This document shows positions 5,831 to 54,574 of a DNA stretch of 64,000 nt, piece after piece (positions within the stretch are counted from its first letter, which is position 1; each line of letters starts with the position of its first letter). Source of the DNA: Bacteroidales bacterium UBA1176 (lineage in GTDB: Bacteria > Bacteroidota > Bacteroidia > Bacteroidales > WCHB1-69); the NCBI GenBank assembly GCA_002311645.1, contig DBYW01000011.1:10739-74738 (forward strand), in the 5' to 3' direction. The notes beneath the pieces are model-generated. The model saw only the letters and a program-made list of their open reading frames with translations, ran no database searches and was not told the origin of the DNA. The position numbers and the translations under genes were made by a program.

Positions 5831-5850
5831 TTTTGTTTGATTTCTGTTCG

Positions 5851-5867
5851 CAAAAATAGTATCTTTG
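5851..5867. promoter_or_regulatory. Back-to-back divergent -7 boxes (the minus box for the LTD gene, the plus box for asd)
   Basis: CAAAAATA (5851-5858) is TATTTTTG on the minus strand. TATCTTTG (5860-5867) is on the plus strand. Confidence 0.45.
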
Positions 5868-5914
5868 CAGGCAGAAGTCAAGAATTGTTAATAACTTTTT
5901 AGAATCGAAAAACA

Positions 5915-6898: not shown

Positions 6899-6902
6899 GA
6901 TT

Positions 6903-6943
6903 TTGGCGGTTGGATGTTGGTAGTTGGTAGTTGGTGTTGGGAT
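6903..6943. repeat. Low-complexity TTGG-word array (complement of the CCAAC family)
   Basis: TTGGCGGTTGGATGTTGGTAGTTGGTAGTTGGTGTTGGG, directly after the asd stop codon. Confidence 0.8.
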
Positions 6944-7010
6944 TAATTACCTCATTGATTCTTTACAATAAAATTCCATATTTCCCGTTTCATGGGACGC
7001 GGTATTTTCG

Positions 7011-7018
7011 TATTTTTG
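7011..7018 (+). promoter_or_regulatory. -7 promoter box for the S41 peptidase gene
   Basis: TATTTTTG lies 16 nt upstream of ATG 7034. Confidence 0.4.
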
Positions 7019-7033
7019 CCGCCCTTATTGAAT

Positions 7034-26312: not shown

Positions 26313-26413
26313 AAGAAACTAAGAAATTAAGAAATTAAGAAATTAAGAAATTAAGAAGTTAAGAGGTTGATTATTAATAGTTTAATATTTTAATATTTTA
26401 ATGATTTAATAAC
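26313..26413. repeat. Tandem 8-nt word array (AAGAAATT, about 6 copies) followed by an AT-only word array
   Basis: AAGAAACTAAGAAATTAAGAAATTAAGAAATTAAGAAATTAAGAAGTTAAGAGGTT, then GATTATTAATAGTTTAATATTTTAATATTTTAATGATTTAATAAC. The second part overlaps the last codons of the 26390 gene. Confidence 0.85.
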
Positions 26414-34372: not shown

Positions 34373-34398
34373 ATTTTTATACTTTACGAAACAAAGCC

Positions 34399-34442
34399 GC
34401 AAATGTACATAAATTTTAAATATGCACTGACATGATGTAATT
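34399..34442 (-). promoter_or_regulatory. Promoter-containing 44-nt repeat, copy A (drives the 30449-34372 gene)
   Basis: GCAAATGTACATAAATTTTAAATATGCACTGACATGATGTAATT. The minus strand carries the -7 box TACATTTG (34400-34407), 28 nt upstream of the start at 34372. It is nearly identical to copy B at 39416-39459. Confidence 0.55.
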
Positions 34443-34522
34443 GTTGTGATTTTCCCGCACACCGTCCCTTCCCAGGGGTTGCAGCGCTCGTTCCCTACCA
34501 ACCCTGGCAGACCTCTGGCCTG

Positions 34523-34610
34523 CCAACCACCAACAACCAAAGACCCCATAGTTCATAGCCATAGTTCAAAGTTCCAACGACCAACCACCAACGACCAACC
34601 ACCAACAACC
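34523..34610. repeat. Low-complexity CCAAC-word array with an embedded CCATAGTTCA duplication
   Basis: CCAACCACCAACAACCAAAG ... CCATAGTTCATAGCCATAGTTCAAAGTTCC ... AACGACCAACCACCAACGACCAACCACCAACAACC. Confidence 0.85.
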
Positions 34611-40201: not shown

Positions 40202-41332
40202 ATGATTAGATGTGAAAATTGTGGCTGGAGCAATAATCCAGACGGAAGTACCACTTGTCAAAAATGCGATAGCCCTCTGATGAGAGCTTCTGCGTCTAAT
40301 TCCAACGAAAAAGCGGCTCAAGAAGAAAAGGTTGAGCCCAAACCCAACAGACCGTTGCGTCAGACCATACGCGAGATACTGAAGGATCCCTCCCCAAAGG
40401 ATTCCTCTCCCAAGGATTCTGAAAAATCCTCCAATGAAAGTCGTATGACGCAGAGAATCGGTAAAGTGGTTGAACCTGCCTCTTCTGAAAAGGAGGCCTC
40501 CGAACCCAAGTCTGAGCCCAAGACGGCGGAACAATCCAAGAGCACGGAGGCTTCTGCTCCTCAGGCCTCGGCGTGTCCTTCATGCGGATACCCTCTGCGC
40601 CCGGGCAGTCTGACGTGCCCCAAATGCAACACCTCCGTTGCCGCGCGCACCGTGCACGACAAACCCTCTCCGTTGAAGGGAACAGTCATAGAAGTTCCCC
40701 CGACAGAAGAGAAAGAGACGTCATCGGCACAGAAGAACACCGTTTATGAAGGCAACAACCCTCAAAAGGGTACTTTTTTCCAGGGTAAAGACCCTCAGAA
40801 AAGCACCCGTTATGAAGGCTTTAATCCTCAAAAATCCACCCGTTATGAAGGTGTCAATCCGTTGAGGGCGACGCGCCGTGAAGGCCAGTTCCCGCAAAAA
40901 GGCACTATCAATGAGCATATTGACGAGTCCCGGGAGCCGGTGAAGACCCCGAATCCTGCGTCCGCCGAGCCGAAGGTCGCCGAAGTTGTGAGTAAGGGTA
41001 CGGTTTTCCCAAGTCATCTGACAGATGATGAGCCACAAAAGGGAAAATCCATCCGCATGACAGCCTTGAATGTCGGTGAACGCCCCGATTTCGCTCCGAT
41101 AGACCTTGAGTTCTCGGACAAGGAGGTTGTCCTCAACAGGGGCAATGTCGCTCCCAACGACCTCACGATCTCTCGTTCCGCACAGGCCCTGCTCACCTGC
41201 GAGGATGGACATTGGTATATAGAAAACAAAAGTCGCCTGTTGACCACTTCATTGGTCCTTGACAAAAAACACGAGCTTCAGGATGGCGACATTGTAATCA
41301 TTGGGGACAAAATGTTCAGAATCGGCTTCTAA
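40202..41332 (+). CDS. Double zinc-ribbon protein with a disordered linker, NPQK tandem repeats and a divergent C-terminal FHA domain
   Basis: CENCGWSNNPDGSTTCQKC and CPSCGYPLRPGSLTCPKC. Five copies of (Y/F)(E/Q)GxNPQK(G/S)T. The C-terminus VVLNRG...ISRSAQALLTCEDGHWYIENKS...LQDGDIVIIGDKMFRI is FHA-like, with His replaced by Gln. Confidence 0.75.
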   Translation: MIRCENCGWSNNPDGSTTCQKCDSPLMRASASNSNEKAAQEEKVEPKPNRPLRQTIREILKDPSPKDSSPKDSEKSSNESRMTQRIGKVVEPASSEKEASEPKSEPKTAEQSKSTEASAPQASACPSCGYPLRPGSLTCPKCNTSVAARTVHDKPSPLKGTVIEVPPTEEKETSSAQKNTVYEGNNPQKGTFFQGKDPQKSTRYEGFNPQKSTRYEGVNPLRATRREGQFPQKGTINEHIDESREPVKTPNPASAEPKVAEVVSKGTVFPSHLTDDEPQKGKSIRMTALNVGERPDFAPIDLEFSDKEVVLNRGNVAPNDLTISRSAQALLTCEDGHWYIENKSRLLTTSLVLDKKHELQDGDIVIIGDKMFRIGF

Positions 41333-41336
41333 GGTT

Positions 41337-42629
41337 ATGTCAACAATTGTAAAGCGTTGTGATTTCAAGATAGATGACGTCATACAGGGAAGGTATGTCG
41401 TTCAAAAGGTGCTGGGCGAGGGTACATTCGGCAAGGTGTACAAGGTCACGGACAGACACGACCCCTCGAAGCCGGTGGCTTTCAAGCTGCTGAAATTGTG
41501 GGAAGTGCCCCCGACCATCCGCGAGGAACTCCAGCAGCGTTTCCAGATGGAGTTCGAGACGGGCCGCATCGACAGCCCCTACTTAGTCCGCTCCATGGAC
41601 TATGGCATCGAAGGCGGCAACCCTTTCTTCGTCATGGAGTTCTGTCCTAACGGAGACATCAGCAAGTTTATACCTTCCTCTCCTGCGGATGTGATTCCGG
41701 ACGAGAAGCTGTGCGACATTTTCAGCAATGTGCTTTTAGGCTTGCGTATGCTTCACAGTTGTGGCAAGGTGCATCGCGACTTGAAACCCGAGAACGTTTT
41801 ACTCAAGGAGAACGACTTTGCCGTGCTGACCGATTTCGGCATCTGCGGCGACCGCAATAACCGGATGACGGAGCGCAACATCTTAGGCAAGCCCATGCAG
41901 ATGTTCGGCACATACGCCTACATGCCGCCAGAACAACTGCGGCGCGTTAGGGGCAATGCCACGGTACTCCCCACCACCGACATTTTCTCTTTCGGCGTGC
42001 TGGTATACCAGCTTATCACGGGCCGGCTTCCATTCGGCAGCATGGAAGACCAGAACCAGCTGGTGATGTATCAGAAAAACGCCACCGCAGGGCAATGGGA
42101 TCGCACCCAGCTCAACCGCTACGGTGTCCATCCCCGCTGGCGCGAAATCGTCGAGGGCTGCCTTGTGCCCGACTACAAGGAGCGCTTCCAAAGTGTGGAT
42201 GAATGCCTTAAATGCATACCGAATGTGCATCATTCCCATACGGAGAATGTCGCGGCATCCTATCAGGGCAATGGCCGCCGGCTGCGTGTCATGCAGGGCG
42301 AGGAATACGGCAAGGTCTATGACTTGATGGCCCTGCTGAAAAGCCACGGCTCCTTGTTGTCCATGGGATGCAAGCCGGAAAACGACATCCATGTCCGCGA
42401 AGAACTCTCGTTTGTCATTTCCCGCCGCCATTGTACCTTGGAGACGGAAGACGGCGGGCGCACGTGGTTTGTGCGCGACGGACAGTGGATTGCGGACAAG
42501 CGCGAATGGTGCCGCTCCACCAACGGCACATTCCTGAATTCGACCGAAGTTACGCAAGACGGCCTGGAATTGTCACCGGGTGACATCTTGACCATCGGCG
42601 ATGCAAAACTTCGATATGAAATCTTTTAA
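41337..42629 (+). CDS. Hanks-type Ser/Thr protein kinase with a C-terminal FHA domain (no TM segment)
   Basis: GEGTFGKVYKV, VAFKLLK, HRDLKPENVLL, TDFG and YMPPEQ make up the kinase. FVISRRHCTLE...STNGTFLNSTEV...LSPGDILTIGDAKLRY is the FHA. The start is ATG 41337, 4 nt after the preceding stop. Confidence 0.9.
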   Translation: MSTIVKRCDFKIDDVIQGRYVVQKVLGEGTFGKVYKVTDRHDPSKPVAFKLLKLWEVPPTIREELQQRFQMEFETGRIDSPYLVRSMDYGIEGGNPFFVMEFCPNGDISKFIPSSPADVIPDEKLCDIFSNVLLGLRMLHSCGKVHRDLKPENVLLKENDFAVLTDFGICGDRNNRMTERNILGKPMQMFGTYAYMPPEQLRRVRGNATVLPTTDIFSFGVLVYQLITGRLPFGSMEDQNQLVMYQKNATAGQWDRTQLNRYGVHPRWREIVEGCLVPDYKERFQSVDECLKCIPNVHHSHTENVAASYQGNGRRLRVMQGEEYGKVYDLMALLKSHGSLLSMGCKPENDIHVREELSFVISRRHCTLETEDGGRTWFVRDGQWIADKREWCRSTNGTFLNSTEVTQDGLELSPGDILTIGDAKLRYEIF

Positions 42630-42675
42630 AATAGAAAACACAGTTAACTTTATTATTAATTAAAACAACAATGCT

Positions 42676-44190
42676 ATGAGTAAAACAGACTCCTTTAAGT
42701 CCTCCTTCGGCGGCACCGTCGGTTCCGGTATGAAATCCGTCTTCAACCCGTCCGGCAAGCGGTTCTACATATTGGAACACCGCAATGATTCGCAATACCA
42801 TCGTGCAGGCGAAGCCCAGAACATCATCGTGGATGAGGCCACCATCGGTCGTGACCCCAAGTGCACGGTCCGCTTCGATGAAGACTTCAACACGGTCAGC
42901 CGCATGCATGCCGCCATCCGCCACGAGGGCGAGAATTATGTGCTGTACCATTTGTCAAAGACCAACCCCACGCTCGTGAATGGTTCTCCGGTGCAGGGCA
43001 CTTATTATCTCAAAAACGGTGACGAGATCCAGCTCTCCTCCAACGGACCGCGTCTCGGATTCATCATCCCCCAAGGCGAACAGTCTCTCGTGAAGAGCCT
43101 CGGCCTCACCGCTCGTCTCAATCTTTTCCGCAAACAGGCCCTGCGTCCCTACAAGACCGCGCTGTCCATCCTTTGCGCCCTCCTCGCGCTCGCTATCGCC
43201 GGTGGCGTTATCTATGGCGTCAAGAGCAACAAGAAAATCAAAGAACTGACCATTTTGTCCGATCAGTTGAAACATCAACAAGATTCCTTGCTCTTGGAAC
43301 AGACGCGTATCCAAAACCTCCTTGACTCCATGGACAGAGTGGAACCCACCGTCAAGCATGTCTGGCACAATGGCGCTGTGGTTGATGCGAAAAAGCTCAA
43401 AGACGAAATGGAAGCCGGTATCGCTCCGGAATACATCACCTCGCTTGATCAGGTCAAGGGCAGTGTCTGCTATGTCGAGACAACCGTCATGGCGGATGTT
43501 GAAGGCGAACCGTTCGAGGTCGGCAAAGTGTCGGGCAGCGGTTTCCTCCTTTCTGACGGCACCTTCATCACCGCGCGTCACATGGTCACGCCGTGGCTCT
43601 ATCCCTCCAGCATCCTCGACCTCTTCATGAACTCCAAGGCTTCCACCGATGAGGTGTTCCTCTATTCCAAGGTTAAAGTGTTCTTTGGCGACAAGAGCTT
43701 TACCCTCAACAGCAACGACTTCAAGATGGATGTCAGCAAGGACGTGAAATGGACGGACGGCAACGGTACAGTTTACAATGTCGCCTTCCCCATGAACAGC
43801 GAGCACAACATGAAGGCCATGAGCACCGACTGGGCTGCAGCTGCCACCCGTTACAAAGGCAATATCCAAATCGATGCCGCCGCATCCATGTCTCCGGTCA
43901 GTGGCCAAGATGTGTACATCATGGGCTTCCCTGGCGGATTGGGCTATAAGGATAGTGAAGATGTCGAGAATATTGTCAATCCGATCTACAACCAGACCAC
44001 GATTGCCCGTCAGGGCCTCAACAATGCCGACTGCATCACCATTTCCAACACGGTTGACCACGGCAATTCCGGCGGTCCTGCCTTCATCATTCGCGACGGC
44101 AAGCTGTATGCCATTGGCATCGTCTCGCGTATCGACAAGGATTCGCAGAAATATGCTCACATCGTTCCTATCAAGAACGTTGTGCGTTAA
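42676..44190 (+). CDS. FHA domain, TM helix, coiled coil and trypsin-like serine peptidase fusion protein
   Basis: TIGRDPKCTVRF..VSRMHAAIRHEGENYVLYHLSKTNPTLVNG...GDEIQL is the FHA. ALSILCALLALAIAGGVIYGV is the TM. GSGFLLSDGTFITARHMV (His), DWAAA (candidate Asp) and VDHGNSGGPAF (Ser) form the protease triad. Confidence 0.85.
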   Translation: MSKTDSFKSSFGGTVGSGMKSVFNPSGKRFYILEHRNDSQYHRAGEAQNIIVDEATIGRDPKCTVRFDEDFNTVSRMHAAIRHEGENYVLYHLSKTNPTLVNGSPVQGTYYLKNGDEIQLSSNGPRLGFIIPQGEQSLVKSLGLTARLNLFRKQALRPYKTALSILCALLALAIAGGVIYGVKSNKKIKELTILSDQLKHQQDSLLLEQTRIQNLLDSMDRVEPTVKHVWHNGAVVDAKKLKDEMEAGIAPEYITSLDQVKGSVCYVETTVMADVEGEPFEVGKVSGSGFLLSDGTFITARHMVTPWLYPSSILDLFMNSKASTDEVFLYSKVKVFFGDKSFTLNSNDFKMDVSKDVKWTDGNGTVYNVAFPMNSEHNMKAMSTDWAAAATRYKGNIQIDAAASMSPVSGQDVYIMGFPGGLGYKDSEDVENIVNPIYNQTTIARQGLNNADCITISNTVDHGNSGGPAFIIRDGKLYAIGIVSRIDKDSQKYAHIVPIKNVVR

Positions 44191-44251
44191 TTGGAACAGG
44201 TTGTTTGAATGCCAATTTCTTTAGATTATTAAGTATTAAATATATTAAAGT

Positions 44252-45706
44252 ATGAGTGACATAACGATATGTCTCACCGCTGCCACTGACGTGGGCGTAT
44301 ATCGCAAGAATAACGAAGACAATTTCATCGTATGCCCCGATGTCAGTGTCGACAACTGGACCATCCCCCAAGACCCTAACGGAATTATTCCGTTGGGGTC
44401 TCGGGGCAGTCTTATTGTCGTCGCCGACGGCATGGGTGGGATGAATGCCGGCGAGGTTGCATCCGACATCGCCGTGCATACAGTCAAGGATTGTTTTGCA
44501 CCGGACAAGGTTACCCCGGAGGATTTTGCAACTCCAGCCGCCGCCTGCAAGTTTATGAAGCAGGTGATTTTGGAGGCTGACAACCGCATCAAGAAACATG
44601 CCAAAAAGCATTCCGACACCAGCGGCATGGGCACCACCATCGTGATGGCCTGGCTGTTGGACAACACGGCGTGCGTGGCATGGTGCGGTGACAGCCGGGC
44701 TTACGCCTTCCACCCGGAAACCGGCCTGCGTCAGCTGTCGAAGGACCACTCATACGTGCAGTCGTTGGTCGACTCCGGCCAGCTTCTGCCGGAATTGGCA
44801 TTCGATCATCCTGACAGCAACATCATAACTTCGAGTCTTGGCGACTTCGTCAACTCCGCATCGCCCGACAGTGTGGTCACATATCTCCATAACGGAGAGA
44901 TGCTGCTGCTTTGCAGTGATGGATTGTGCGGCATGATCCGCGACAATGAGACGGAGCAGATTCTCCAGCAGACGCACGAGGATCTCGACGCCTGCCGTCA
45001 GGCCCTGATTCAGGGTGCGCTCAATGCGGGAGGTCACGACAATGTGACCGTTGCCCTGCTCAAGGTGCTGTCGGGCGCTCCGGACCTGCCTCCTGTCACC
45101 AACACCCCGACCCGCACGCTCTCGCCCACGGAGGTTGAGCAGCAGGCGCAAGGCGAGGACCAGGCAATTGAAGAGCCTTCCGACATCGAAGAGTTGGTGA
45201 AACCTGCCGTTGAACAGAATGCTGCCAACGATCTCGACGCCAAGGCCAAAGCCAAGGTCGAAGAATTGAAGAAAAACAAGAAGAAAGGACGCAAGTTCTT
45301 CTGGACCCTCTTCATCCTCCTGCTTTTGGCGGGCGGCCTCTACCTCTTGTGGCGCTTCGTGCCGGGTATGCCGTTCCAGCCCAAGCAATGCGAGGGACCC
45401 GACTCAAACCAGGTTGAGATTGTAGACACCAACATAACGCCACCTTCACCAGAACCCGAAACCCCGGTCGTAGTCCCAGAAACCCCAAAACCTGAGAATG
45501 CTCCGGCTTCCGGGCCACAGAAACCGCAATCCACAACTCAACAAACCACAACTCAGCAAACCACTCCTTCTCCAGCCAACCCCATTGGCATGATCATTGA
45601 AAAACAGCAGGCGAAGACGTCTGCTACAACCGAGCCGACAGAAAAGCCGCAAACCGATGCGGACGCGTCAAACGAGGCCACGGAAACCAATTCAGAAGAG
45701 GAGTAG
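44252..45706 (+). CDS. PP2C-family Ser/Thr phosphatase with a C-terminal TM helix and a Pro/Thr/Gln-rich tail
   Basis: VGVYRKNNEDNF, VADGMGGMNAGEVAS, LLLCSDGL and GGHDNVTVAL make up the PP2C. The TM is FFWTLFILLLLAGGLYLLWRFV. The tail carries TTQQTTTQQTTPSP. Confidence 0.9.
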   Translation: MSDITICLTAATDVGVYRKNNEDNFIVCPDVSVDNWTIPQDPNGIIPLGSRGSLIVVADGMGGMNAGEVASDIAVHTVKDCFAPDKVTPEDFATPAAACKFMKQVILEADNRIKKHAKKHSDTSGMGTTIVMAWLLDNTACVAWCGDSRAYAFHPETGLRQLSKDHSYVQSLVDSGQLLPELAFDHPDSNIITSSLGDFVNSASPDSVVTYLHNGEMLLLCSDGLCGMIRDNETEQILQQTHEDLDACRQALIQGALNAGGHDNVTVALLKVLSGAPDLPPVTNTPTRTLSPTEVEQQAQGEDQAIEEPSDIEELVKPAVEQNAANDLDAKAKAKVEELKKNKKKGRKFFWTLFILLLLAGGLYLLWRFVPGMPFQPKQCEGPDSNQVEIVDTNITPPSPEPETPVVVPETPKPENAPASGPQKPQSTTQQTTTQQTTPSPANPIGMIIEKQQAKTSATTEPTEKPQTDADASNEATETNSEEE

Positions 45707-45747
45707 TTTAGAGTTTTTAAGTACAATAAGAAAAAATAGAAACAGAT

Positions 45748-47139
45748 ATGTTGACAGAAAATAGCATGTTTGCCGGACGTTACCGGTTGTTGAAGAAAAT
45801 TGGCGGAGGCGGTTTCTCCGTCGTATGGAAAGCCATTGACACGATGGCGGGCAATTTGATTGTCGCCATTAAAATCTATGTGCCTGACAATGGCATGGAC
45901 GAGGAGGGCTTGCGCATCTTCCGGGATGAGTTCTCCTTGGTGTTCGCGCTGAACCATACGAATTTGCTGCGCCCTACTTATTATGACATTTGTGACGACT
46001 CTCCCTACCTGGTGCTGCCCTTCTGCGACAGGGGCAGCGCGGAGCGTCTGATCAACCCCGAACGGCCGCTGCCTGAAAGAAATGTGGTAGAGTTTATACG
46101 CGACGTCGCGGCAGCCTTGGCATACCTGCACAGTCAGGAACCGCCCATCATCCATCAGGACATCAAGCCGGGCAACGTGCTTTTGTCCAATGATGGCTCC
46201 TATAAGGTCACGGACTTCGGTATCAGCACCCGTATGCGCAGCACGTTGCGCAAGACGGTGGGTGCCTCCGAGATGGACAAGCTCTCCAAGAGCAATGGCA
46301 GCGGATCCATCCCCTATATGGGACCGGAACGCTTCTCCGCCTCGCCCACGCCGGTCAAGGCCAGCGATGTTTGGGCTCTCGGTGCCGCCGCCTTCGAGAT
46401 TATGACCGGCGACGTGCCGTTCGACGAGATGTTCGGCGGAAGCCTCCAGAAAAACGGCGCGGATGTGCCAGTTATCCCCGGTAGCTATTCCAAGGGACTC
46501 AAGAAATTAGTCTACAAGTGTCTCGCCAAGGAGACCTGGGATCGTCCCACTGCCGCCCGCATCGAACAGTGCTGCAACGAATACCTCGAAACGGGCAAGT
46601 GGCGTCTCCACCTGCTCGATCCGCCTGTCGTATGGCAGCGCTATCGCAGAAAAGTGATCGCCATCATTGCCGTCGCCATCCCGATTTTGCTCGGCGTCGC
46701 ATTCTTCTCCTTTGAGCACCACAAGGCCTCGAAACTCGTCTCCAAAGTGGAGAGCCTCTCTGTCGTGGCCCAGCAGCATTTGGACGGGAGCCTCATGGAC
46801 ATAGACCGCGCACGGCGTTCCTCCATCATGGAGTGCGAGAACTTGGGATTGGAAAAATCCTTGTGCACTCACATCGACACGCTCAACATGATATGCAGGA
46901 ATCTCCAATCGATTTCCTCCGACTGGACCTTCAAGCATTTCGTGGACGAAGAGAAAAGAGTTCAGCCCGACAAGGTGCTCACAGGGATCGTCATTGCTTT
47001 GGACGACCAATATGATATCTCGATGGATATACGTGAAAAGAATATCGAGGACGGTTTTCCCACAGATGTTGCTACTATGCTCATCAACACCTTGCGTGGC
47101 TTCAGCTTCTTGTCGAAGAACCAGAGCGCGAAACAGTAA
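45748..47139 (+). CDS. Membrane-anchored Hanks-type Ser/Thr protein kinase with a ~125-aa extracytoplasmic C-terminal domain
   Basis: GGGGFSVVWKA, VAIKIY, HQDIKPGNVLL, TDFG and YMGPER make up the kinase. The TM is VIAIIAVAIPILLGVAFFSF. No PASTA or other sensor domain was recognisable. Confidence 0.9.
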   Translation: MLTENSMFAGRYRLLKKIGGGGFSVVWKAIDTMAGNLIVAIKIYVPDNGMDEEGLRIFRDEFSLVFALNHTNLLRPTYYDICDDSPYLVLPFCDRGSAERLINPERPLPERNVVEFIRDVAAALAYLHSQEPPIIHQDIKPGNVLLSNDGSYKVTDFGISTRMRSTLRKTVGASEMDKLSKSNGSGSIPYMGPERFSASPTPVKASDVWALGAAAFEIMTGDVPFDEMFGGSLQKNGADVPVIPGSYSKGLKKLVYKCLAKETWDRPTAARIEQCCNEYLETGKWRLHLLDPPVVWQRYRRKVIAIIAVAIPILLGVAFFSFEHHKASKLVSKVESLSVVAQQHLDGSLMDIDRARRSSIMECENLGLEKSLCTHIDTLNMICRNLQSISSDWTFKHFVDEEKRVQPDKVLTGIVIALDDQYDISMDIREKNIEDGFPTDVATMLINTLRGFSFLSKNQSAKQ

Positions 47140-47155
47140 TTAAAATGTTGATTTG

Positions 47156-48889
47156 ATGCAAGACAAGCCAACCCGAGTTAAAGTCCTTGTTTTCACTGTG
47201 GTGTCGTTGCTCATGGCTACGACGGCGTTCGCGCAGTGCATGGCCCCTCGTGAGCAAAGGGGCGACGGCTTCGCGAAGTCGCACAAATACGACCAGGCCA
47301 TCAGCGACTATGCCAATGCCTTGACCTGCCCTGAACTGACCACCGCCGACAAGACCCGCCTCAACAAGAAAATCCAAAACTGCAAGGCTCTCAAGGAAAA
47401 GGAGAGAAAGGAGAAGGAAAATAGGGAAAAGGCTGCTCGTGCGGCGCGTGGGAATGACAATGCCACTGCGGATATGCAACAGGACTCTACCGAAAACCAT
47501 GCCATCAGCGACGAGGTGGCAGACACCGGAGATGATGCTTTGGACACCCTGATCGGGAAAGAGGAGATAGATCCATACCAAGTGCTCCGGGAACTGCATG
47601 AGAAATGGAAGAAGACCGCTTACATGGGTAGTATCCGCGTCAACATCGAGGGCCAGTGCTCGGACGGCTCGAAACTTCTCAACGAAGAGATGGACTATGT
47701 CGTGCCCAAGGTCTTCTACTCGCCGCTCGACCCCGACTCGGTCCATGAGGTGATGTTGGATGTCTGCATATTGCGCAAGGAAAGTATCATCATCCGCAAG
47801 GAATGCCCGGTGGAGGTAAAGCCTGTGTCGGGCGATTTTATCATCAAGGACCTGATATGGTCGCCGGAATACGAGCCAGGCGACTACACCTTCCAGATCA
47901 TGTACAATGGCACCCCCATCTATTTGGGCGAGTTCGTCGTCCAGCAAAAGAAAATCAAGTTGATTGTCAACACTATCGATGCGGAGTATGTGGACACCAT
48001 GCACCGGATTATGGTCAACAATAAAGACACGGTGCTGACGTTCACAGTTGAGGCCAACGCCTCTTACACGGTGACGTTGCCCGACTGGTGCATGCTGAGG
48101 CAAAAGAAGGGCGACATGTTCGAGGTCGAGGTGCTGCGGAACACGGCCAAGGATGCGCGCATCGGTGCCGGCTCCGTGACGGCCGCATCGCGCAACAAGA
48201 ACAACTTCAAGACCATTAAGTTCAACATCCGTCAAGCCGGCACGCAGTACAAGTTCGATGTCAACAACAAAACGACCACTCTTTCGCGGATCATGAAGGC
48301 CCGGGGCGGCAACATCTCCTTGATGGCGCACACCGACGCCCCTTCCTGCCGTATTGAGGGCGCTTCCGCGTGGTGCTCCGGTGCGGTGACCCGCGACAAG
48401 TACAACCTGAATCTTCAGATCCATGTCAGCACCAACAAGAGTGCCCGCTCAAGATACCACACGCTCTACGCGATTGTCTACGATGGCGTTGACAAGGCCA
48501 TCGACAGCATCCCCATTGCCATCCGCCAACGCGGGAACATCCCCATTTTAGAGTCCATCTTCATTCCGGGTGCAGGCTTGATCAGCAAGGGTCGCAACGG
48601 CCTTGGCGGTGTCATTCTCTTCGGAGAAATCCTTACGGGCGGAGTCGCCATCGCCAACCATTTCGTCTGCGACTATTCCAAGAAAAACGATAGGACGAAT
48701 TTCTTCACCCGAAACGAAGCCACCATTCGCGCATCCTCCCTCGGCGCGTGCATAGGCATCTATGTGCTGAACTTGGTGCTTACGCCGACGTTGAAGGCCA
48801 AAGAGAACTATAATATCAGCTTTTATCCAGCGGTGCAGCCCTCCATGGGGCAGGCAACCCTCTCTATGGGGTTCTCCTGCCGGTTTTAA
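47156..48889 (+). CDS. Secreted/membrane protein with two BACON-like modules and a C-terminal double-helix membrane anchor (DUF5683-like); paralog A
   Basis: Signal ...TTAFAQ|C, then CMAPREQRGDGF. BACON-like DWCMLRQKKGDMFEVEVLRNTAKDARIGAGSVTA. C-terminus IFIPGAGLISKG plus two hydrophobic helices, ending ...SMGFSCRF. Confidence 0.6.
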   Translation: MQDKPTRVKVLVFTVVSLLMATTAFAQCMAPREQRGDGFAKSHKYDQAISDYANALTCPELTTADKTRLNKKIQNCKALKEKERKEKENREKAARAARGNDNATADMQQDSTENHAISDEVADTGDDALDTLIGKEEIDPYQVLRELHEKWKKTAYMGSIRVNIEGQCSDGSKLLNEEMDYVVPKVFYSPLDPDSVHEVMLDVCILRKESIIIRKECPVEVKPVSGDFIIKDLIWSPEYEPGDYTFQIMYNGTPIYLGEFVVQQKKIKLIVNTIDAEYVDTMHRIMVNNKDTVLTFTVEANASYTVTLPDWCMLRQKKGDMFEVEVLRNTAKDARIGAGSVTAASRNKNNFKTIKFNIRQAGTQYKFDVNNKTTTLSRIMKARGGNISLMAHTDAPSCRIEGASAWCSGAVTRDKYNLNLQIHVSTNKSARSRYHTLYAIVYDGVDKAIDSIPIAIRQRGNIPILESIFIPGAGLISKGRNGLGGVILFGEILTGGVAIANHFVCDYSKKNDRTNFFTRNEATIRASSLGACIGIYVLNLVLTPTLKAKENYNISFYPAVQPSMGQATLSMGFSCRF

Positions 48890-48919
48890 CAGTCCGTCTC
48901 AAAAGAAGTTAGTTAGCTT

Positions 48920-50521
48920 ATGAGGAAAATTCTTACCTTAATCTGCCTTGTGGTCCTTCCATGTATGCTTTGGGCGCAATGTTTCACCCCCCGGGAGCAA
49001 AGGGGGGACTCTTTTTTTGCTGAAAAAGATTACAAGGCTGCAAAAGACTGGTATGAAAAAGCCAAGACCTGTATGGACCTGACGAACAGCGACAAGTCAC
49101 GTTTGAACGGTAAAATTGCGAAATGTAACAAGCTTATCAAACAGCCCGATGACCAGCCACAAACTCCGCAGCCTACCAAACCCGAAACCGAATGGGTCAA
49201 GACCGCCTATATGCAGGACCCGGAAATAAGTCTCGAGTTCTATAAAGACGGGGATAAACTGCAAATCCCTGCGCAGGATATGGACTATTTTGTCCCGGTT
49301 GTGCGGTATGTGCCCAAAGACACCGTCAAGGACCATGTGGCAAGCCTGCGCCTGCGTGTCTGGCAGGGCACCGACCTGAGCCGGCGTCCCAAGTCGGACG
49401 TGAACCTCGATTGCCAAGTGCTGCATAACAAGCGGGAAACGAGCTTGGAACAGCAGAAATGGAATCATGGCACAGGTGTTTTCACCATCGAGATCACGAA
49501 CCGCTACAACAACACAACCCTCTACAAGGACGTCATAGAGGTCCTTGAGAAAACCATCAGTCTCCAAGTAAACACCAGCAGCGGAACACCGGCTGAAAAC
49601 TTGCTGATTGGGAAAGGAACTCCGACAAAGGTGTATCGCTACATGGTCGCCACCAATGCCGAGAGCTTCCAGGCTGTTTCCACCGCCTCGGACTGGTGCA
49701 AGATCGAGAATATAACCGGTAACAGTTTTGATGTCCGTGTGTTAGAGAATAACGGTCGCGACATGCGAGTCGCCGACTGCCGCGTGACTGCCGGCGACAA
49801 GACGGTCTCCTTCACCGTGACGCAGGAGGGCAAGTCCTTCTTCCTGACGGTGGACGGGTATTCTACACGCATGCCGGATCAGACGTGCCGCGCCCGGGGC
49901 ACCCGGCTCTATTTCCCCGTCAAGTCCAATGCCCGGTGGTCTGTCAAAGGCGACAACAGATGGTGTCGTTGGAACTCGGCGATGAGCAAAGACACATTGG
50001 TGCTCGATATTGCGCCCAACGACAAGGCTTCCAAACGCGAGATAGAGATACAGGTGGTGGCTGTGGACGGCAACGGGGTGGAGGTTGACCGCCTTGACAT
50101 GCGCATTGTGCAGTCCGGCGACTTGGCCATTGTGAAATCCCTCTTTATTCCCGGCTTAGGCCAGATGGGCAGGGGACAGGTGGGCAAGGGCTCCGCTATC
50201 CTTGTCGGTGAGGTGGTCTGTGCCGGCACGGCTCTTATTACATACGCTTCGGGCAAATCGAAGCTGAAACTGATGAACAGCAGCATAGAAACTGGCAATT
50301 ACGACGATTTTATGAAAGCAAGCAAGAGCTACAAGAACTTGCGTGCCGCCAACTATACTTTTTGGAGCTTCGCAGGAGCCCTTTACGTCTATAATCTTGT
50401 GGACGCCATTGTTTCCAAGGGAAAACCGAACTACAAGAACTCCAAGATATCTTTCGCCCCCGTCGCCGCCCCGACATTGGAAGGGCCTGTGTTCTCGATG
50501 GGGTTCAACTTTAAATTCTGA
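48920..50521 (+). CDS. Paralog B of the preceding gene (BACON-like modules plus a C-terminal membrane anchor)
   Basis: Signal ...CMLWAQ|C, then CFTPREQRGDSF. DWCKIENITGNSFDVRVLENNGRDMRVADCRVTAGDKTVSFTVTQEG. LFIPGLGQMGRGQVGKGSAILVGE. It ends ...SMGFNFKF. Confidence 0.6.
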   Translation: MRKILTLICLVVLPCMLWAQCFTPREQRGDSFFAEKDYKAAKDWYEKAKTCMDLTNSDKSRLNGKIAKCNKLIKQPDDQPQTPQPTKPETEWVKTAYMQDPEISLEFYKDGDKLQIPAQDMDYFVPVVRYVPKDTVKDHVASLRLRVWQGTDLSRRPKSDVNLDCQVLHNKRETSLEQQKWNHGTGVFTIEITNRYNNTTLYKDVIEVLEKTISLQVNTSSGTPAENLLIGKGTPTKVYRYMVATNAESFQAVSTASDWCKIENITGNSFDVRVLENNGRDMRVADCRVTAGDKTVSFTVTQEGKSFFLTVDGYSTRMPDQTCRARGTRLYFPVKSNARWSVKGDNRWCRWNSAMSKDTLVLDIAPNDKASKREIEIQVVAVDGNGVEVDRLDMRIVQSGDLAIVKSLFIPGLGQMGRGQVGKGSAILVGEVVCAGTALITYASGKSKLKLMNSSIETGNYDDFMKASKSYKNLRAANYTFWSFAGALYVYNLVDAIVSKGKPNYKNSKISFAPVAAPTLEGPVFSMGFNFKF

Positions 50522-50523
50522 CT

Positions 50524-51843
50524 ATGAAAAACAAAGCCATACTCATACTGACCGCGCTTGCGTTTATTCTCCCGTCGGGTTGTCTCAAGAAACTCGAGAA
50601 AGAGGGCATCTTCAGTGACACCCTGGTGTTCGGGACCGTTACTGTTAATGATGCCGACCACACTCCAGCTTCAAATGTTGTGGTCTCCTTGGTGGATGGC
50701 GAGAACATGGTACGTTCCACCACCACAGATGCGCGCGGCTATTACGAAATATCCGTCTCCGCCGAAGAAATCCATAAGGGTTTCGCCTTTAAGCTTACCG
50801 CCGACTCGGTGTATCAGGACGCGGTGTTCTCCTTGGAAGAGGTGGGCTTCGGCTTAGAGCGTTACGAGCTCAACATGTCGCTCGACGGTCCCTCTTTGCC
50901 GCAGGTGCAAACACTTGAAGTGTCCAATGTCACGACCCAAAGTGCGCTTGCCAAGGGCGTGGTCACGAATAACGGGAACCTGCCTCTCCAGTCGCGCGGT
51001 TTTTGCTGGAGCCGTTTGCCCAATCCCACCGTCAACGATGCCCACGTGAACGTGCCGGGCGGGGTAGGGGAATTCACCGCCACCCTCACCGGTCTTGAAC
51101 CGGCGATAACCTACTATGTGCGCGCATACGCCTCCAACAGCCAGGGTCTCGTGTATGGCGCGGAATTGTCGTTCACTACAGAGGGCGTGTTCCATTGCGG
51201 CAACTCCAAGGTCTACGACTTCGACGGCAATCCTTATAACACCCTGCTGATCGGCACCCAGTGCTGGACTCGCGAGAGCATGCGCACCACGCATTACTCC
51301 GACGGCACGGCAATCCCGGCGGGCACGACCAGCGGCGACACTCCGTACCGCTACGCCCCCGGCAACGACGAGTCCAACGTCTCCACCTACGGCTATCTCT
51401 ACAACTGGTCTGCCACCATGCGCGGCGCGGCATCTGGACAGTCGCCGGTACAGGGTGTCTGCCCTGACGGCTGGCACGTGCCTACCGACGCGGAGTGGAC
51501 CCAGCTGACCAATACGGTCTCCTCGTCAGGCTTCGTTTGCGGCGGCAACCCCGACAACAACGCCAAGGCCTTGGCTGCCACATGGGGCTGGAACAGCAGC
51601 AATGTGTCCTGCTCCGTGGGCGAGGACCCCTCATCCAACAATGTCACCACATTCACGGCACTGCCCGCTGGCTTCTATTCCGGCACCTATAGCAACATGG
51701 GCGGCTATGTCTATTTCTGGACATCGACCGAAAGCGGCTCGTCCACAAGCTACAGCCGTCTTATCCGGTACGACAATCCGAATGTCGCTGTCAGGTCAAA
51801 CGGCAGGAAAAACGGCAATCTCGTGCGCTGTGTGTTAGATTGA
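50524..51843 (+). CDS. Lipoprotein: CarboxypepD_reg-like domain, Fn3-like module and FISUMP domain
   Basis: Lipobox ILPSGC. GTVTVNDADHTPASNVVVSLVDGENMVRSTTTDARGYYEI. FCWSRLPNPT...YYVRAYASNSQGLVYG. DFDGNPYNTLLIGTQCWTRESMR...CPDGWHVPTDAEW...LVRCVLD. The ATG is 2 nt after the upstream stop. Confidence 0.75.
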   Translation: MKNKAILILTALAFILPSGCLKKLEKEGIFSDTLVFGTVTVNDADHTPASNVVVSLVDGENMVRSTTTDARGYYEISVSAEEIHKGFAFKLTADSVYQDAVFSLEEVGFGLERYELNMSLDGPSLPQVQTLEVSNVTTQSALAKGVVTNNGNLPLQSRGFCWSRLPNPTVNDAHVNVPGGVGEFTATLTGLEPAITYYVRAYASNSQGLVYGAELSFTTEGVFHCGNSKVYDFDGNPYNTLLIGTQCWTRESMRTTHYSDGTAIPAGTTSGDTPYRYAPGNDESNVSTYGYLYNWSATMRGAASGQSPVQGVCPDGWHVPTDAEWTQLTNTVSSSGFVCGGNPDNNAKALAATWGWNSSNVSCSVGEDPSSNNVTTFTALPAGFYSGTYSNMGGYVYFWTSTESGSSTSYSRLIRYDNPNVAVRSNGRKNGNLVRCVLD

Positions 51844-51901: not shown

Positions 51902-54574
51902 ATGAAAAAAATAACAGGCATATTTTTGATTTCCTTGCTTTTGTTGCAGACACTTGTGGCGCAAGTGCCGAACAGGTTCGTCTACCAGGCGGTGGTGCGG
52001 AACAACAGCAACAATTCGTTGGTCACCAACCAGCAGATAGGTGTCAGGATTTCCATCCGCCAGGGCTCGGAAAATGGCGCGTCCGTATACACGGAGACGC
52101 ACCATCCGACCACGAACGTCAACGGCCTTATGACGGTGGAGGTGGGCGGCGGCACCCCGCAGGGCGGCTCTGTCTTCTCCAACATCGACTGGTCGTTGGG
52201 CACCTTTTTCCTGAAGGTGGACCTCGATCTGAACGGAGGGAACAATTACGTGGACTATTCCACGCAGCAGATATTGAGTGTGCCGTATGCGTTGTATTCC
52301 GAGACCGCCGGCAATGTGCCCACCTTGAACATCACCCCCGTCTCCAACGGCTATGAGTTGGAGTTGTCAAATCCCGGGGGCGGCAGCCAGACCTATTCGC
52401 TGCATCATGGCACGCAGGGACCGCAGGGACCGACAGGTCCGCAGGGACCCTCTGGCCCGCAAGGCCTGGCCGGACACTCCATCAGCGTGCAGTCGGTGCC
52501 CACCTCTAACGGCAATTTGGTGACCATGCACTATTATGACCAGAATGGGCAGCAGCAGAGCGTCCAGTTCAATGTGACGAACGGCCAGCAAGGTCCGCAG
52601 GGCCCCGCCGGCCAGTCGGGCGTGTCGCCCACCATCGTCACCCACCAGTATGCGGACAGCACCGTGGTGGTCATCACGGATGTGGACACCACGCAGTCGT
52701 TCACCATCCGCAACGGCGCGCAGGGTCCCGCCGGCCCTCCGGGTCCCGCCGGCCCTCCGGGAATATCCCCGAGAGTTACCACCACGCCGACCACGAACGG
52801 CACCATCGTCACCATCACCGACTCGGTCGGCACGCGCTCGTTCACGATCCATAACGGCGCCACCGGCCCGCAAGGCCCCGCCGGACAGGACGGCACTCCC
52901 GGCACCCCCGGCTTCTCCCCGACAGTTGCCACCTTTCCGAACAGTAGTGGCACGACCGTCACCATCACGGATGCCACCGGTCCTCACACCTTCACTGTCC
53001 AGAACGGACTCTCCGCCTACCAGATATGGCTGAATGCGGGCAACAGCGGCACCGAGGCTGACTTCCTGGCCGCCACCACGCCCCAGACCCTCTCGCTTTC
53101 CGGCGACCAGCTCTCCATCTCCGGCGGCAACAGCGTGACCCTGCCCATGACGCACACTACGGGCGCCACCGGCCTCTCCGCCTACCAGATATGGCTCAAC
53201 AATGGCCATAGCGGCTCCGAAGCCGACTTCTTGGCCTCCCTGCAAGGCACCAATGGCTACAGCCCAGTGGTTACCATTGAACCGCTCGACTCCATGCGCA
53301 CCCGGCTCACCATCACCGATGCCAACGGCCCGCACGCTTTTGTGCTGCGCAACGGCATCGACGGCGGCCCGTTCATCCAGGAGCAGGCCGACTGGACCGA
53401 GTCTAATGCGTCCGAAAAATCCTATATCCTCAACAAACCGTCGTTGGCGGCTGTGGCCACTTCCGGCAGCTACAACGACCTCTTGAACAGGCCCACGCTT
53501 TTCAGCGGCAACTACAACGACCTGGCCAACCGTCCCACCATACCGACCGTCCCCACCAATGTAGGCGCGTTCAACAACGATGCCGGCTATGTCTCCAATA
53601 GCGGTTGCGACACGGTGGCCTTCTGCGACATGATGGCGCAGGCGAGTCTTCTGAACGCCCGCATTGCTGCCCTGCAGGCCCGGATGGGCCAGGGTGGGGG
53701 AGCCGCCAATGTCACCCTGCCGACGGTTACGACCGCCGCGGTGACGAATATTGGCCATGCGGATGCCACGTGTGGCGGCAATGTGACCTCCGACGGCGGC
53801 GGCATTGTTGCCGCCAAGGGGGTGTGCTGGAACACTACCGGCAGCCCTACCATTGCCGACAACCACACCATAGACGGCGGCGGACGCGGCGCGTTTGTCA
53901 GCGCTGTCCGTGCCTTGGTGCCTGGCACCACCTACCACGTGCGGGCTTACGCCACCAACGACGCGGGCACGGCGTATGGTGACGAGGTAACCTTTACAAC
54001 TGAGCAGCTTCCTGCCGCCGTGGGCGACATTCTCTGCACCGACGGCACGTGGGTCTCCTTAAGCGATTATGCCGCCTCCGGCAAGACCGCCATGGGCGTG
54101 ATCTTCCATGTGGACGACTCCGGCATGCACGGCTGGGCCGTGAATCTGCACGACGACTGCCCATACTACTGTAGATGGGGCGACTACGACACAGACATTC
54201 CCGATTTGCCCAACTTTACGAATAGCACGGTGGCATGTGCCGACACGGCGGGCTACAGTAACACGCAGATCATCCGCAACTATGGAAACGCTGCCACATA
54301 CTCCGCCGCCTGGGCTGTGGACTTTAACAACGGTTGGTACCTGCCTGCCATGGGACAACTGAATACACTGTACAACGCACGCAATACGGTAGAACCATCC
54401 TTGACTGCGGTGGGCGGCACTTTGTTTGGGAATGGTGATCATTTCTGGTCGTCAACAGAATATAGTGAGATCCATGCGTGGTTCGTGACCGGCTATGGCA
54501 CGACCGGCTATGGTTACGTGACCTACCATAATAAGGCCAACGAGCATCTGGTGCGTAGTGTTCGTTCGTTTTAG
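51902..54574 (+). CDS. Collagen-like/tail-fibre-like secreted protein with a C-terminal DUF1566 (Lcl C-terminal)-like lectin-type head
   Basis: GPQGPTGPQGPSGPQGLAG and three further GXY tracts alternate with ~30-aa SPxV...VTITD...F(T/V)(I/V)xNG units. LSAYQIWLN(A/N)G.SG.EADFLA occurs twice. ADWTESNASEKSYILNKP. An Fn3-like VCWNTTGSPT...YHVRAYATNDAGTAYG. GWYLPAMGQLNTLY...FWSSTEY...LVRSVRSF. Confidence 0.8.
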   Translation: MKKITGIFLISLLLLQTLVAQVPNRFVYQAVVRNNSNNSLVTNQQIGVRISIRQGSENGASVYTETHHPTTNVNGLMTVEVGGGTPQGGSVFSNIDWSLGTFFLKVDLDLNGGNNYVDYSTQQILSVPYALYSETAGNVPTLNITPVSNGYELELSNPGGGSQTYSLHHGTQGPQGPTGPQGPSGPQGLAGHSISVQSVPTSNGNLVTMHYYDQNGQQQSVQFNVTNGQQGPQGPAGQSGVSPTIVTHQYADSTVVVITDVDTTQSFTIRNGAQGPAGPPGPAGPPGISPRVTTTPTTNGTIVTITDSVGTRSFTIHNGATGPQGPAGQDGTPGTPGFSPTVATFPNSSGTTVTITDATGPHTFTVQNGLSAYQIWLNAGNSGTEADFLAATTPQTLSLSGDQLSISGGNSVTLPMTHTTGATGLSAYQIWLNNGHSGSEADFLASLQGTNGYSPVVTIEPLDSMRTRLTITDANGPHAFVLRNGIDGGPFIQEQADWTESNASEKSYILNKPSLAAVATSGSYNDLLNRPTLFSGNYNDLANRPTIPTVPTNVGAFNNDAGYVSNSGCDTVAFCDMMAQASLLNARIAALQARMGQGGGAANVTLPTVTTAAVTNIGHADATCGGNVTSDGGGIVAAKGVCWNTTGSPTIADNHTIDGGGRGAFVSAVRALVPGTTYHVRAYATNDAGTAYGDEVTFTTEQLPAAVGDILCTDGTWVSLSDYAASGKTAMGVIFHVDDSGMHGWAVNLHDDCPYYCRWGDYDTDIPDLPNFTNSTVACADTAGYSNTQIIRNYGNAATYSAAWAVDFNNGWYLPAMGQLNTLYNARNTVEPSLTAVGGTLFGNGDHFWSSTEYSEIHAWFVTGYGTTGYGYVTYHNKANEHLVRSVRSF

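Follow-up and report, generated by a model that had tools for sequence, protein, structure and literature searches.

A 64,000-nt stretch of contig DBYW01000011.1 (assembly GCA_002311645.1, Bacteroidales bacterium UBA1176), referred to below as the window and used for all coordinates, contains two tandem paralogous genes, A and B, whose products represent a new architecture assembled from known or catalogued domains (TPR-like, Ig-like, BACON and DUF5683). From the N- to the C-terminus, each protein consists of a signal peptide, a TPR-like three-helix Cys module, a linker, an Ig-like sandwich, two BACON domains, and a divergent DUF5683 anchor (Table 1). Elsewhere, the N-terminal part (the N-module) and the anchor mostly occur apart, the former directly behind a membrane Ser/Thr kinase and the latter next to a lipoprotein gene. 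Because the two modules have separate genomic partners, A and B would most likely be adaptors; specifically, we favour, at about even chances, the view that they are membrane-tethered periplasmic proteins acting between a kinase cassette and lipoprotein and fibre genes. An initial annotation of this DNA had suggested that the pair links the signalling module to the fibre proteins, an idea that gains support from these two independent neighbourhood associations.

Domain architecture of the paralogs

Proteins A and B align from end to end (BLASTP E = 6e-47, 26% identity), far above chance, and are genuine full-length paralogs. The ATG start of A agrees with that of a 98% identical database protein (P0004). 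A shorter protein of 137 aa (P0010) matches paralog A over approximately the first 87 residues and then diverges; it is probably a frameshifted or mis-assembled copy from another sample.

A Gln directly behind the hydrophobic region of the signal peptide is invariant (14/14 aligned relatives), and the first Cys follows it at a distance of 1-6 residues in the homologues (AQDCY, AQSCY, AQVDCY, AQENYSPCY). The invariant Gln and the shifting Cys indicate that signal peptidase I cleaves at A↓Q, and not at AQ↓C, as the initial annotation had it; such cleavage, which leaves an N-terminal Gln, is the Q-rule of Bacteroidetes (PMC5837995, PMC10653852). Reading the same region as that of a lipoprotein was rejected, as it does not conform to a lipobox: position -1 would be Gln, and the Cys is not fixed relative to that Gln. 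The motifs first pointed out in both proteins, AQC..PREQRGD.F and Y..A..Y..A..C..LT..DK.RLN.KI..C, are indeed invariant between A, B and their 85%-identity orthologues. Distant relatives carry C-Y-x-x-T-R-x-x-G in place of PREQRGD; the latter is clade-specific, and its RGD therefore has no special standing.

The helical, Cys-containing region noted initially is present, but it is a single TPR-like three-helix unit of ~53 aa and not a region of ~70 aa. In the AlphaFold2 (AF2) model of B, its helices occupy model residues 3-15, 19-30, and 37-55 (pLDDT ~90). The family profile of this module matches consensus TPR proteins (E = 1e-13 to 6e-4), while the Pfam models TPR_1 and TPR_2 reach 14 bits, with cutoffs at 27-28; it comprises one repeat and a capping helix, and not a superhelical tandem array of at least three TPR repeats. 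In one relative (P0009), the first two of the three conserved Cys have been lost together, which suggests that these two form a disulfide. The linker that follows measures 71 aa in A versus 19 aa in B, and that of B is modelled as disordered (AF2 pLDDT <50).

Between the Cys module and the BACON domains lies an Ig-like sandwich that had been overlooked in the initial annotation. Foldseek returned generic Ig-like matches with low TM-scores for the sandwich of B (best 9ard_A, E = 1e-4), and one relative has a borderline DUF3859 match; no specific fold was assigned. The proposal that each protein has two BACON modules stands for B, whose PF13004 score clears the cutoff and which also matches BACON_2 (24 bits); the corresponding modules of A score below the cutoff but align by BLASTP to the BACON domains of B.

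A divergent DUF5683 anchor

As described initially, both paralogs have an (I/L)FIPG(A/L)G motif, a pair of hydrophobic segments, and a terminus of the form ISF(Y/A)P...SMGF..(R/K)F. The Pfam model of DUF5683 (PF18935) gives 16.5-20.7 bits with B and no match with A, short of the gathering threshold of 26.7; 12 of 40 subfamily members match it at E <= 0.01 (best 2.3e-10). Comparison by hhalign of the anchor with standalone DUF5683 proteins yielded 99.1% probability and E = 1.4e-18 in an alignment of 121 columns that takes in the last strand, and reciprocally a profile of window-type anchors (A2) recovers PF18935-annotated proteins (E = 7e-5 against 5.8e9 sequences). Together, these results establish that the anchor is homologous to DUF5683 over the whole module. 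The assignment to DUF5683 suggested at the outset was thus right, divergent as the match is. The hallmarks of DUF5683 are present in the anchors: PGxGQ, two hydrophobic helices, an N..DA-type motif in helix 2, and a Phe-terminated tail. Protein A has variants of two of these, PGAGL and a helix-2 motif that lacks the Asp (YVLNLVL).

An AF2 model of the anchor, built from a 40-sequence alignment (mean pLDDT 80), consists of a short helix, the PGLGQ turn, a helical hairpin, an 11-residue basic linker, and a beta-hairpin. The two long helices (residues 26-63 and 66-103, ~38 residues each, pLDDT 87-94) are hydrophobic in their membrane-proximal halves, and the tip of their hairpin is polar; the strands span residues 115-124 and 127-136. 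In strand 1, Pro is found at i and i+4 in 25/40 sequences. The last residue is Phe in 43/44 family members. Among 40 non-redundant tails, Phe occupies position 0 in 39, positions 0, -2, -4, and -6 are hydrophobic in 97-100%, and Gly is found at -5 in 72% and at -7 in 62%. The signal recognized by the beta-barrel assembly machinery (BAM) has the consensus GxxPhixPhi (PMC13067283), and the last strand, as judged across these 40 tails, fits it, which bears out the resemblance to an outer-membrane beta-signal noted initially. The accompanying remark that helices and a beta-signal-like end contradict one another likewise holds: the combination is real and family-wide, a hallmark of the whole DUF5683 family.

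No structural match appears among the Foldseek matches listed, no DUF5683 relative was found in resolved envelope complexes, and the searchable literature is essentially silent on DUF5683. NCBIfam yielded only one weak match, in which the PGxGQ hairpin aligns with the Leptospira LB_137 family. A protein of candidate division LCP-89 (L033:9734-10639) has two tandem PG(L/W)GQ hairpins, followed by a C-terminal strand (...FGFQVRFPINLN) whose end is not Phe.

Genomic partners of the two modules

An exhaustive profile search of 1.84 billion representatives recovered only three full-length relatives. About ten proteins have the N-terminal part joined to other C-termini (MORN repeats, an outer-membrane protein (OMP) barrel, or an unknown domain), and many have the anchor alone, behind LPP20-like or LpoB-like domains or a kinase.

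In the window and in two orthologous loci (L001 and L006, 85-87%), A/B-type genes lie directly 3' of the membrane kinase gene. Four further proteins, P0063 (L035), P0016 (L036-38), P0054 (L040/41), and P0011 (L043), share only the N-module, at ~20% identity to B, and each is encoded directly after a membrane kinase. The cassette of these relatives encodes a Zn-ribbon protein, a kinase-FHA protein, in some cases coiled-coil and MotA/ExbB proteins, the membrane kinase, the N-module protein, an FHA-transmembrane (TM)-trypsin protein, and PP2C. The N-module is found directly behind the membrane kinase in 5/5 informative lineages, the window type included; P0135 was left out of this count, its contig being too short. 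The extracytoplasmic C-terminal domain of the L043 kinase (6162-7985) shares 45% identity (E = 4e-33) with each of the two sandwich copies in the neighbouring P0011, and the kinases of L035 and L036-38 also match the sandwich columns. The presence of a sandwich in both kinase and neighbour hints at a homotypic interaction or a shared ligand.

The cassettes of L035, L036-L038, L040/L041, and L043 include additional members: an unannotated protein of 268-349 aa and, in some cases, a further FHA protein and a fusion of a kinase with an FGE-sulfatase domain. Where a MotA/ExbB gene occurs in the cassette, it has no obvious ExbD/TolR-type partner; the cassette of the window is without MotA/ExbB. We found no literature description of this Hanks-kinase/FHA/PP2C/FHA-protease cassette.

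The anchor has a different companion. A lipoprotein gene lies downstream of the anchor gene, usually adjacent or overlapping, in all ten locus types of this anchor subfamily with enough downstream DNA (the window, L001/L006, L003, L004, L005, L007-L011, and L039). In the partner lipoproteins, the lipobox Cys is invariant and a lipid-proximal sandwich of ~100 aa is conserved; variable fn3, Lcl_C, or Fib_succ_major domains come next, and the anchors at these loci bear diverse N-termini (LPP20-like, LpoB-like, kinase, and N-module). Distant DUF5683 genes lack the partner lipoprotein, and the gene contexts of standalone DUF5683 genes are varied. At one locus (L025:8467-10856), a Fib_succ_major lipoprotein gene lies directly 5' of two tandem standalone DUF5683 genes, the reverse of the order in the window. 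A Rosetta-stone argument, in which the CarboxypepD_reg-like domain that P0088 carries fused upstream of its anchor would correspond to the N-terminus of the partner lipoprotein, was unsupported (BLASTP E = 0.79).

A general linkage of the anchor to kinase or FHA genes was considered and rejected, as it is seen only in the window type, in one fusion protein (P0045), and at L012, where a kinase gene lies directly 5' of the anchor gene. Homologues do not always neighbour such genes, a point that the initial annotation had put forward for checking: those that share the N-module do so, and those that share only the anchor mostly do not. P0045 (L004:456-2084) consists of a Ser/Thr kinase, a TM helix, and a coiled coil of ~60 aa fused to a DUF5683-type anchor. 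Its anchor closely resembles the anchors of P0048 and P0003, which are LPP20-type proteins, and the P0045 gene is followed by a 155-aa open reading frame (ORF) and an Lcl_C lipoprotein gene. In two rumen metagenome-assembled genomes (MAGs; L007:6047-11647 and L009:882-6545), an operon of an LPP20-type anchor and its lipoprotein is preceded by genes for a 503-aa secreted protein and a 193-aa lipoprotein, neither of which has significant Pfam matches, and is followed by one for a protein of ~1500 aa. Two further genes 5' of these operons look by eye like a sigma-factor/anti-sigma pair.

Proposed role and alternatives

In the model that we favour, A and B would be exported by Sec and cleaved by signal peptidase I before the invariant Gln, which, at the new N-terminus, would probably be cyclised to pyroglutamate. 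The C-terminal module would tether each protein by a hydrophobic alpha-helical hairpin, with both ends periplasmic, followed by the short, amphipathic, Phe-ended beta-hairpin; the remainder (TPR-like Cys module, flexible linker, Ig-like sandwich, and two BACON domains) would form a periplasmic arm. This arm would belong to the extracytoplasmic side of the Hanks-kinase/FHA/PP2C/FHA-trypsin cassette, most likely serving the membrane kinase as co-sensor or scaffold, while the anchor would pair with the lipoprotein encoded immediately downstream. In this way, A and B would most likely form a physical link from the kinase cassette to the products of the lipoprotein and collagen-like fibre genes of the operon. 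The domain composition, the homologies, and the two neighbourhood associations are shown by the data, and the physical contacts, the direction of signalling, and the membrane of the anchor are inferred.

Several observations weigh against this proposal. All of the evidence is comparative. The window-type architecture is rare (three lineages), so that the fusion has little independent replication; anchor-only relatives are mostly without kinase or FHA neighbours, and N-module relatives are mostly without the anchor. As the two modules are mostly apart elsewhere, the coupling role is deduced from a single fusion type. One protein that does combine N-module and anchor, P0088, has no kinase gene in the 2.4 kb available upstream. 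Furthermore, the periplasmic domain of the window kinase has no detectable similarity to the N-module (hhalign probability 0.9%); a homotypic contact cannot be argued here, and only A and B therefore supply the sandwich in this operon. Finally, the beta-signal-like end, the weak hydrophobicity of the helices, and the lack of a positive-inside bias do not fit a conventional inner-membrane hairpin.

The last of these points bears on the membrane that holds the anchor. An inner-membrane hairpin with both termini outside (N-out/C-out) has about even chances of being correct; an outer-membrane location is clearly less probable than that, and any other arrangement is improbable. In favour of the inner membrane, archaea, Chloroflexi, and others have homologous two-helix hairpins with PGxGQ, whose helices are strongly hydrophobic and which often stand behind cytoplasmic Zn-ribbons; the cytoplasmic membrane is the sole membrane of archaea and monoderms. 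In P0045, moreover, the anchor follows a clear inner-membrane TM helix after only ~60 residues, a stretch of ~9 nm if helical, which is probably too short to cross the periplasm. Outer-membrane anchoring, to which we give well under even chances, would require the helices to escape the Sec lateral gate and the beta-signal to engage BAM; the arm would then reach back to the inner-membrane kinase or protease, and A and B would be envelope-spanning connectors. Besides the fit of the last strand to GxxPhixPhi and the nearly universal terminal Phe, the helices are weakly hydrophobic: only helices of high hydrophobicity are partitioned by Sec into the inner membrane (PMC13067283), and by crude Hessa sums the anchor helices score +4.4 and +4.7 kcal/mol versus -1.4 to -2.6 for the genuine TM helices of the operon. 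Helix 1 is less hydrophobic in Phe-terminal versions than in relatives that lack the hairpin (means +4.3 and +1.7 versus -1.5; p = 0.02 and 9e-6), although this is a post hoc trend and a pooled test of both helices, with versus without the hairpin, was not significant (p = 0.12). The positive-inside rule gives no orientation, as K+R counts are symmetric across the hairpin (3.98 versus 4.00). Only proteins of diderms that bear a signal peptide have the Phe-terminal hairpin, the conserved partner is a lipoprotein, and P0054 has a genuine OMP barrel (PF13568) in place of the anchor, with the N-module and the slot in the cassette unchanged. SlyB and YfgH set a precedent for two-helix hairpins in the outer membrane, and the position of the TPR module, farthest from the anchor, suits a reach from there to the inner-membrane kinase. 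Set against this, AF2 predicts a single two-strand hairpin after two long helices, which is not a multi-strand barrel, and no OMP match was obtained with Pfam; the recurrent Pro residues of strand 1 argue against a closed oligomeric barrel. Nor do A and B have a lipid anchor or a Gly-zipper match in Pfam (none at E <= 10 in one search or at 0.01 in another), and no relative is present in the resolved envelope complexes. The initial suggestion that A and B span the envelope hinges on an outer-membrane anchor, and the evidence is split between the two membranes. More broadly, it is a tentative and rather doubtful extension that DUF5683 constitutes an unrecognised class of outer-membrane anchor, in which a weakly hydrophobic helical hairpin would cross the inner membrane by Sec and be delivered to or dock at the outer membrane by its canonical BAM beta-signal; A and B would in that case span the envelope, held in the outer membrane beside a lipoprotein and with an arm of 400 residues that puts a TPR/Ig sensor at the inner-membrane Hanks kinase, in phospho-signalling from the surface or fibre layer to the cytoplasm.

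Three other readings concern function rather than location, and we consider each of them unlikely. If the hairpin lies in the inner membrane, its Lys/Arg/Ser/Thr-rich tip might itself be a signalling element that is phosphorylated by the cassette kinases and bound by FHA, making A and B phospho-substrates. The loop of 23-36 aa would be the sole cytoplasmic part under the N-out/C-out model, it contains Ser and Thr, and the operon encodes two kinases and two FHA-domain proteins, with a weak FHA-like match in a third; yet a conserved Thr-x-x-(I/L/D) site was not seen, A and B have strongly differing loops, the anchor subfamily occurs mostly in operons without a kinase or FHA gene, and the inner-membrane topology on which this reading depends is itself predicted. 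It is no more probable that A and B are substrates of the upstream FHA-TM-trypsin-like protease, as suggested initially, cut for instance in the linker that separates the TPR module from the sandwich, in a switch by regulated proteolysis. Such a protease is conserved in every cassette beside an N-module protein, its GNSGGP serine motif in the window is apparently intact, and the linker of N-module proteins is disordered and variable. The linker has no conserved cleavage motif, however, and is conserved neither in length (19 aa in B versus 71 aa in A) nor in composition; we saw nothing that speaks directly for cleavage, and membership of one signalling complex would explain the co-occurrence of the protease equally well; this suggestion found no support. 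In the least probable reading, A and B are glycan-binding or spacer proteins that take no part in signalling: their BACON and Ig-like domains would do no more than bind or space components that are carbohydrate-active or adhesive, and their position beside the kinase would reflect operon hitch-hiking. BACON domains are typically found in glycan-utilisation proteins of Bacteroidota and may serve as spacers (PMC11216935), and the downstream genes are lectin-like (Fib_succ_major, Lcl_C). Against it, the slot of the N-module after the membrane kinase is kept across lineages at ~20% identity while the C-termini differ, kinases themselves bear the sandwich domain, and Pfam found no SusC/SusD or glycoside hydrolase genes in the operon.

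Organization of the locus

Paralogs A and B are tightly packed in a plus-strand operon, where the gaps that surround them measure 16, 30, and 2 nt (Table 1). The nearest genome is that of an uncultured Bacteroidales MAG from water-buffalo rumen, with an anchor identity of 87%; the entire operon is retained in this MAG and on another metagenomic contig. The partner lipoprotein comprises a lipid-proximal CarboxypepD_reg-like sandwich, an fn3-like domain, and a Fib_succ_major domain (Pfam), and the orthologue of the giant ORF, at locus L001, measures 6418 aa. Genes of a type VI secretion system were absent from the window by Pfam. Reading the cassette as a defence system was rejected, as PADLOC returned only generic kinase and protease domain matches, and none for A or B.

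Table 1. Coordinates of the operon genes and of the segments of proteins A and B
Feature	Position	Strand	Remarks
Upstream signalling cassette, whole	40202..47139	+	Pfam; equivalent cassette flanks distant N-module proteins
Zn-ribbon protein, weak FHA-like C-terminus	40202-41332	+	Pfam
Kinase-FHA protein	41301-42629	+	Pfam
FHA-TM-trypsin-like protease	42676-44190	+	Pfam
PP2C-TM phosphatase	44252-45706	+	Pfam
Membrane Ser/Thr kinase	45748-47139	+	Pfam; ends 16 nt 5' of A
Paralog A	47156..48889	+	577 aa from ATG; ORF listing gives TTG 47153, one codon earlier
A signal peptide, aa 1-26	47156..47233	+	Ends AFA↓Q; signal peptidase I site, Gln at +1
A TPR-like three-helix module, aa 27-79	47234..47392	+	3 conserved Cys; alignments, TPR profile matches
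A charged/acidic linker, aa 80-150	47393..47605	+	Alignment gap versus B
A Ig-like beta-sandwich, aa 151-268	47606..47959	+	Aligns to B sandwich; A4 profile 4.7e-64 on ORF
A two BACON-like modules, aa 269-362 and 363-460	47960..48535	+	PF13004 20.6 bits, below cutoff 25
A anchor, aa 461-577	48536..48886	+	A3 profile 4e-28; hhalign to DUF5683
A FIPGAGL	48560-48580	+	
A hydrophobic helix segments	48599-48655 and 48725-48781	+	
A beta-hairpin	48812-48886	+	Ends ...SMGFSCRF
Paralog B	48920..50521	+	533 aa; P0001 is 99% identical
B signal peptide, aa 1-19	48920..48976	+	Ends LWA↓Q; alignment, Q-rule literature
B TPR-like three-helix Cys module, aa 20-72	48977..49135	+	AF2, TPR profile matches
B Ig-like seven-stranded beta-sandwich, aa 92-214	49193..49561	+	AF2 pLDDT ~90
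B two BACON domains, aa 215-304 and 305-400	49562..50119	+	PF13004 42.2 bits (cutoff 25), 2 stretches, best 252-303
B anchor, aa 401-533	50120..50518	+	AF2; PF18935 20.7 bits; hhalign 99.1%
B FIPGLGQ	50144-50164	+	
B hydrophobic helix segments	50192-50248 and 50357-50413	+	
B beta-hairpin	50444-50518	+	Ends ...SMGFNFKF
Partner lipoprotein gene	50524..51843	+	Lipobox ...LPSGC; start 2 nt past stop of B
Collagen-repeat/Lcl_C protein	51902-54574	+	890 aa
Giant 'fibre' ORF	From ~54.7 kb, past window end (64000)	+	>3100 aa in window

The 890-aa protein and the giant ORF have a similar N-terminal domain (…RF(V/T)YQAVVRN…) behind an A↓Q signal peptide. Both also contain collagen G-X-Y runs and fn3-like units, and units of the latter kind are found in the partner lipoprotein as well. 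Four long minus-strand ORFs (52367-53938, 55055-56185, 60983-62554, and 62555-63889) lie wholly within the GC-rich (~0.6) collagen-repeat and giant fibre genes; most likely they are not genes but shadow ORFs that the repetitive coding sequence gives rise to.

Elsewhere in the window, four minus-strand genes (4118-5881, 24506-26305, 26390-30388, and 30449-34549) encode cargo of a type IX secretion system with CHU_C or Por_Secre_tail C-termini, from which it follows that the host has such a system; by Pfam, A, B, and the 890-aa fibre protein carry neither sorting domain. An S41 tail-specific protease with a PDZ domain is encoded at 6992-8674 (+) and has no link to the A/B operon. This class of protease recognises nonpolar C-terminal residues.

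Significance and comparison with known systems

DUF5683 is widespread in Bacteroidota, and this locus supplies both a concrete paradox, inner-membrane-like helices with a BAM-like end, and a conserved lipoprotein partner. Should the anchor reside in the outer membrane, it would represent a route into that membrane that is neither barrel nor lipoprotein, of interest to envelope biogenesis. The analysis also outlines a conserved Bacteroidales Hanks-kinase/FHA/PP2C/FHA-protease cassette that has a dedicated partner on the extracytoplasmic side, a TPR-Ig-BACON protein. Ser/Thr signalling is poorly understood in Bacteroidales of the gut and rumen, and a cassette encoded together with collagen- and lectin-like fibre genes would be a tractable entry point. 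If the adaptor reading is wrong, A and B would be ordinary multidomain envelope proteins.

With DUF5683 (PF18935), the anchors share PGxGQ, two G/A-rich hydrophobic helices, (Y/W)xxN(L/I)xDA in helix 2, and the Phe-ended C-terminal hairpin. Canonical members are standalone proteins of ~170-180 aa, whereas here the domain is the C-terminal anchor of multidomain proteins of 533-577 aa. In addition, A has PGAGL instead of PGLGQ, the inter-helix loop of the window type is a long helical extension, and the window subfamily is tied to a specific downstream lipoprotein, unlike distant DUF5683 genes.

Among signalling systems, the TagQRST-PpkA-Fha1-PppA route of threonine phosphorylation in Pseudomonas aeruginosa offers a parallel: outer-membrane TagQ holds periplasmic TagR, upstream of a Hanks kinase with FHA and PP2C (PMC7817224). 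The common logic, a Hanks-type membrane kinase, FHA, and PP2C encoded with envelope accessory proteins, is an analogy only, as A and B resemble neither TagQ nor TagR in sequence or domains. The window cassette further differs in its FHA-TM-trypsin protease and Zn-ribbon protein, and its apparent output is the lipoprotein and fibre genes.

Two classes of outer-membrane protein invite comparison with the anchor. The glycine-zipper 2TM lipoproteins SlyB and YfgH likewise have a two-helix, G/A-rich, weakly hydrophobic hairpin together with beta structure, but A and B are without an N-terminal lipid anchor, their helices are ~38 residues long with a polar tip, and they end in a beta-signal-like strand. 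As for BAM substrates, the last strand, G-h-G-h-(T/S)-h-(K/N/R)-F, matches GxxPhixPhi and lies exactly at the C-terminus; A and B differ in having one predicted beta-hairpin after the helices and a Pro-rich strand 1, and a monomer cannot form a barrel.

Tandem BACON domains behind a signal peptide are a feature that A and B have in common with Bacteroidota proteins of glycan-utilisation loci. In A and B, however, which are not lipoproteins, the BACON domains are not N-terminal but are flanked by the TPR-like module, the Ig-like sandwich, and the membrane anchor, and the locus that encodes them is not a polysaccharide utilisation locus.

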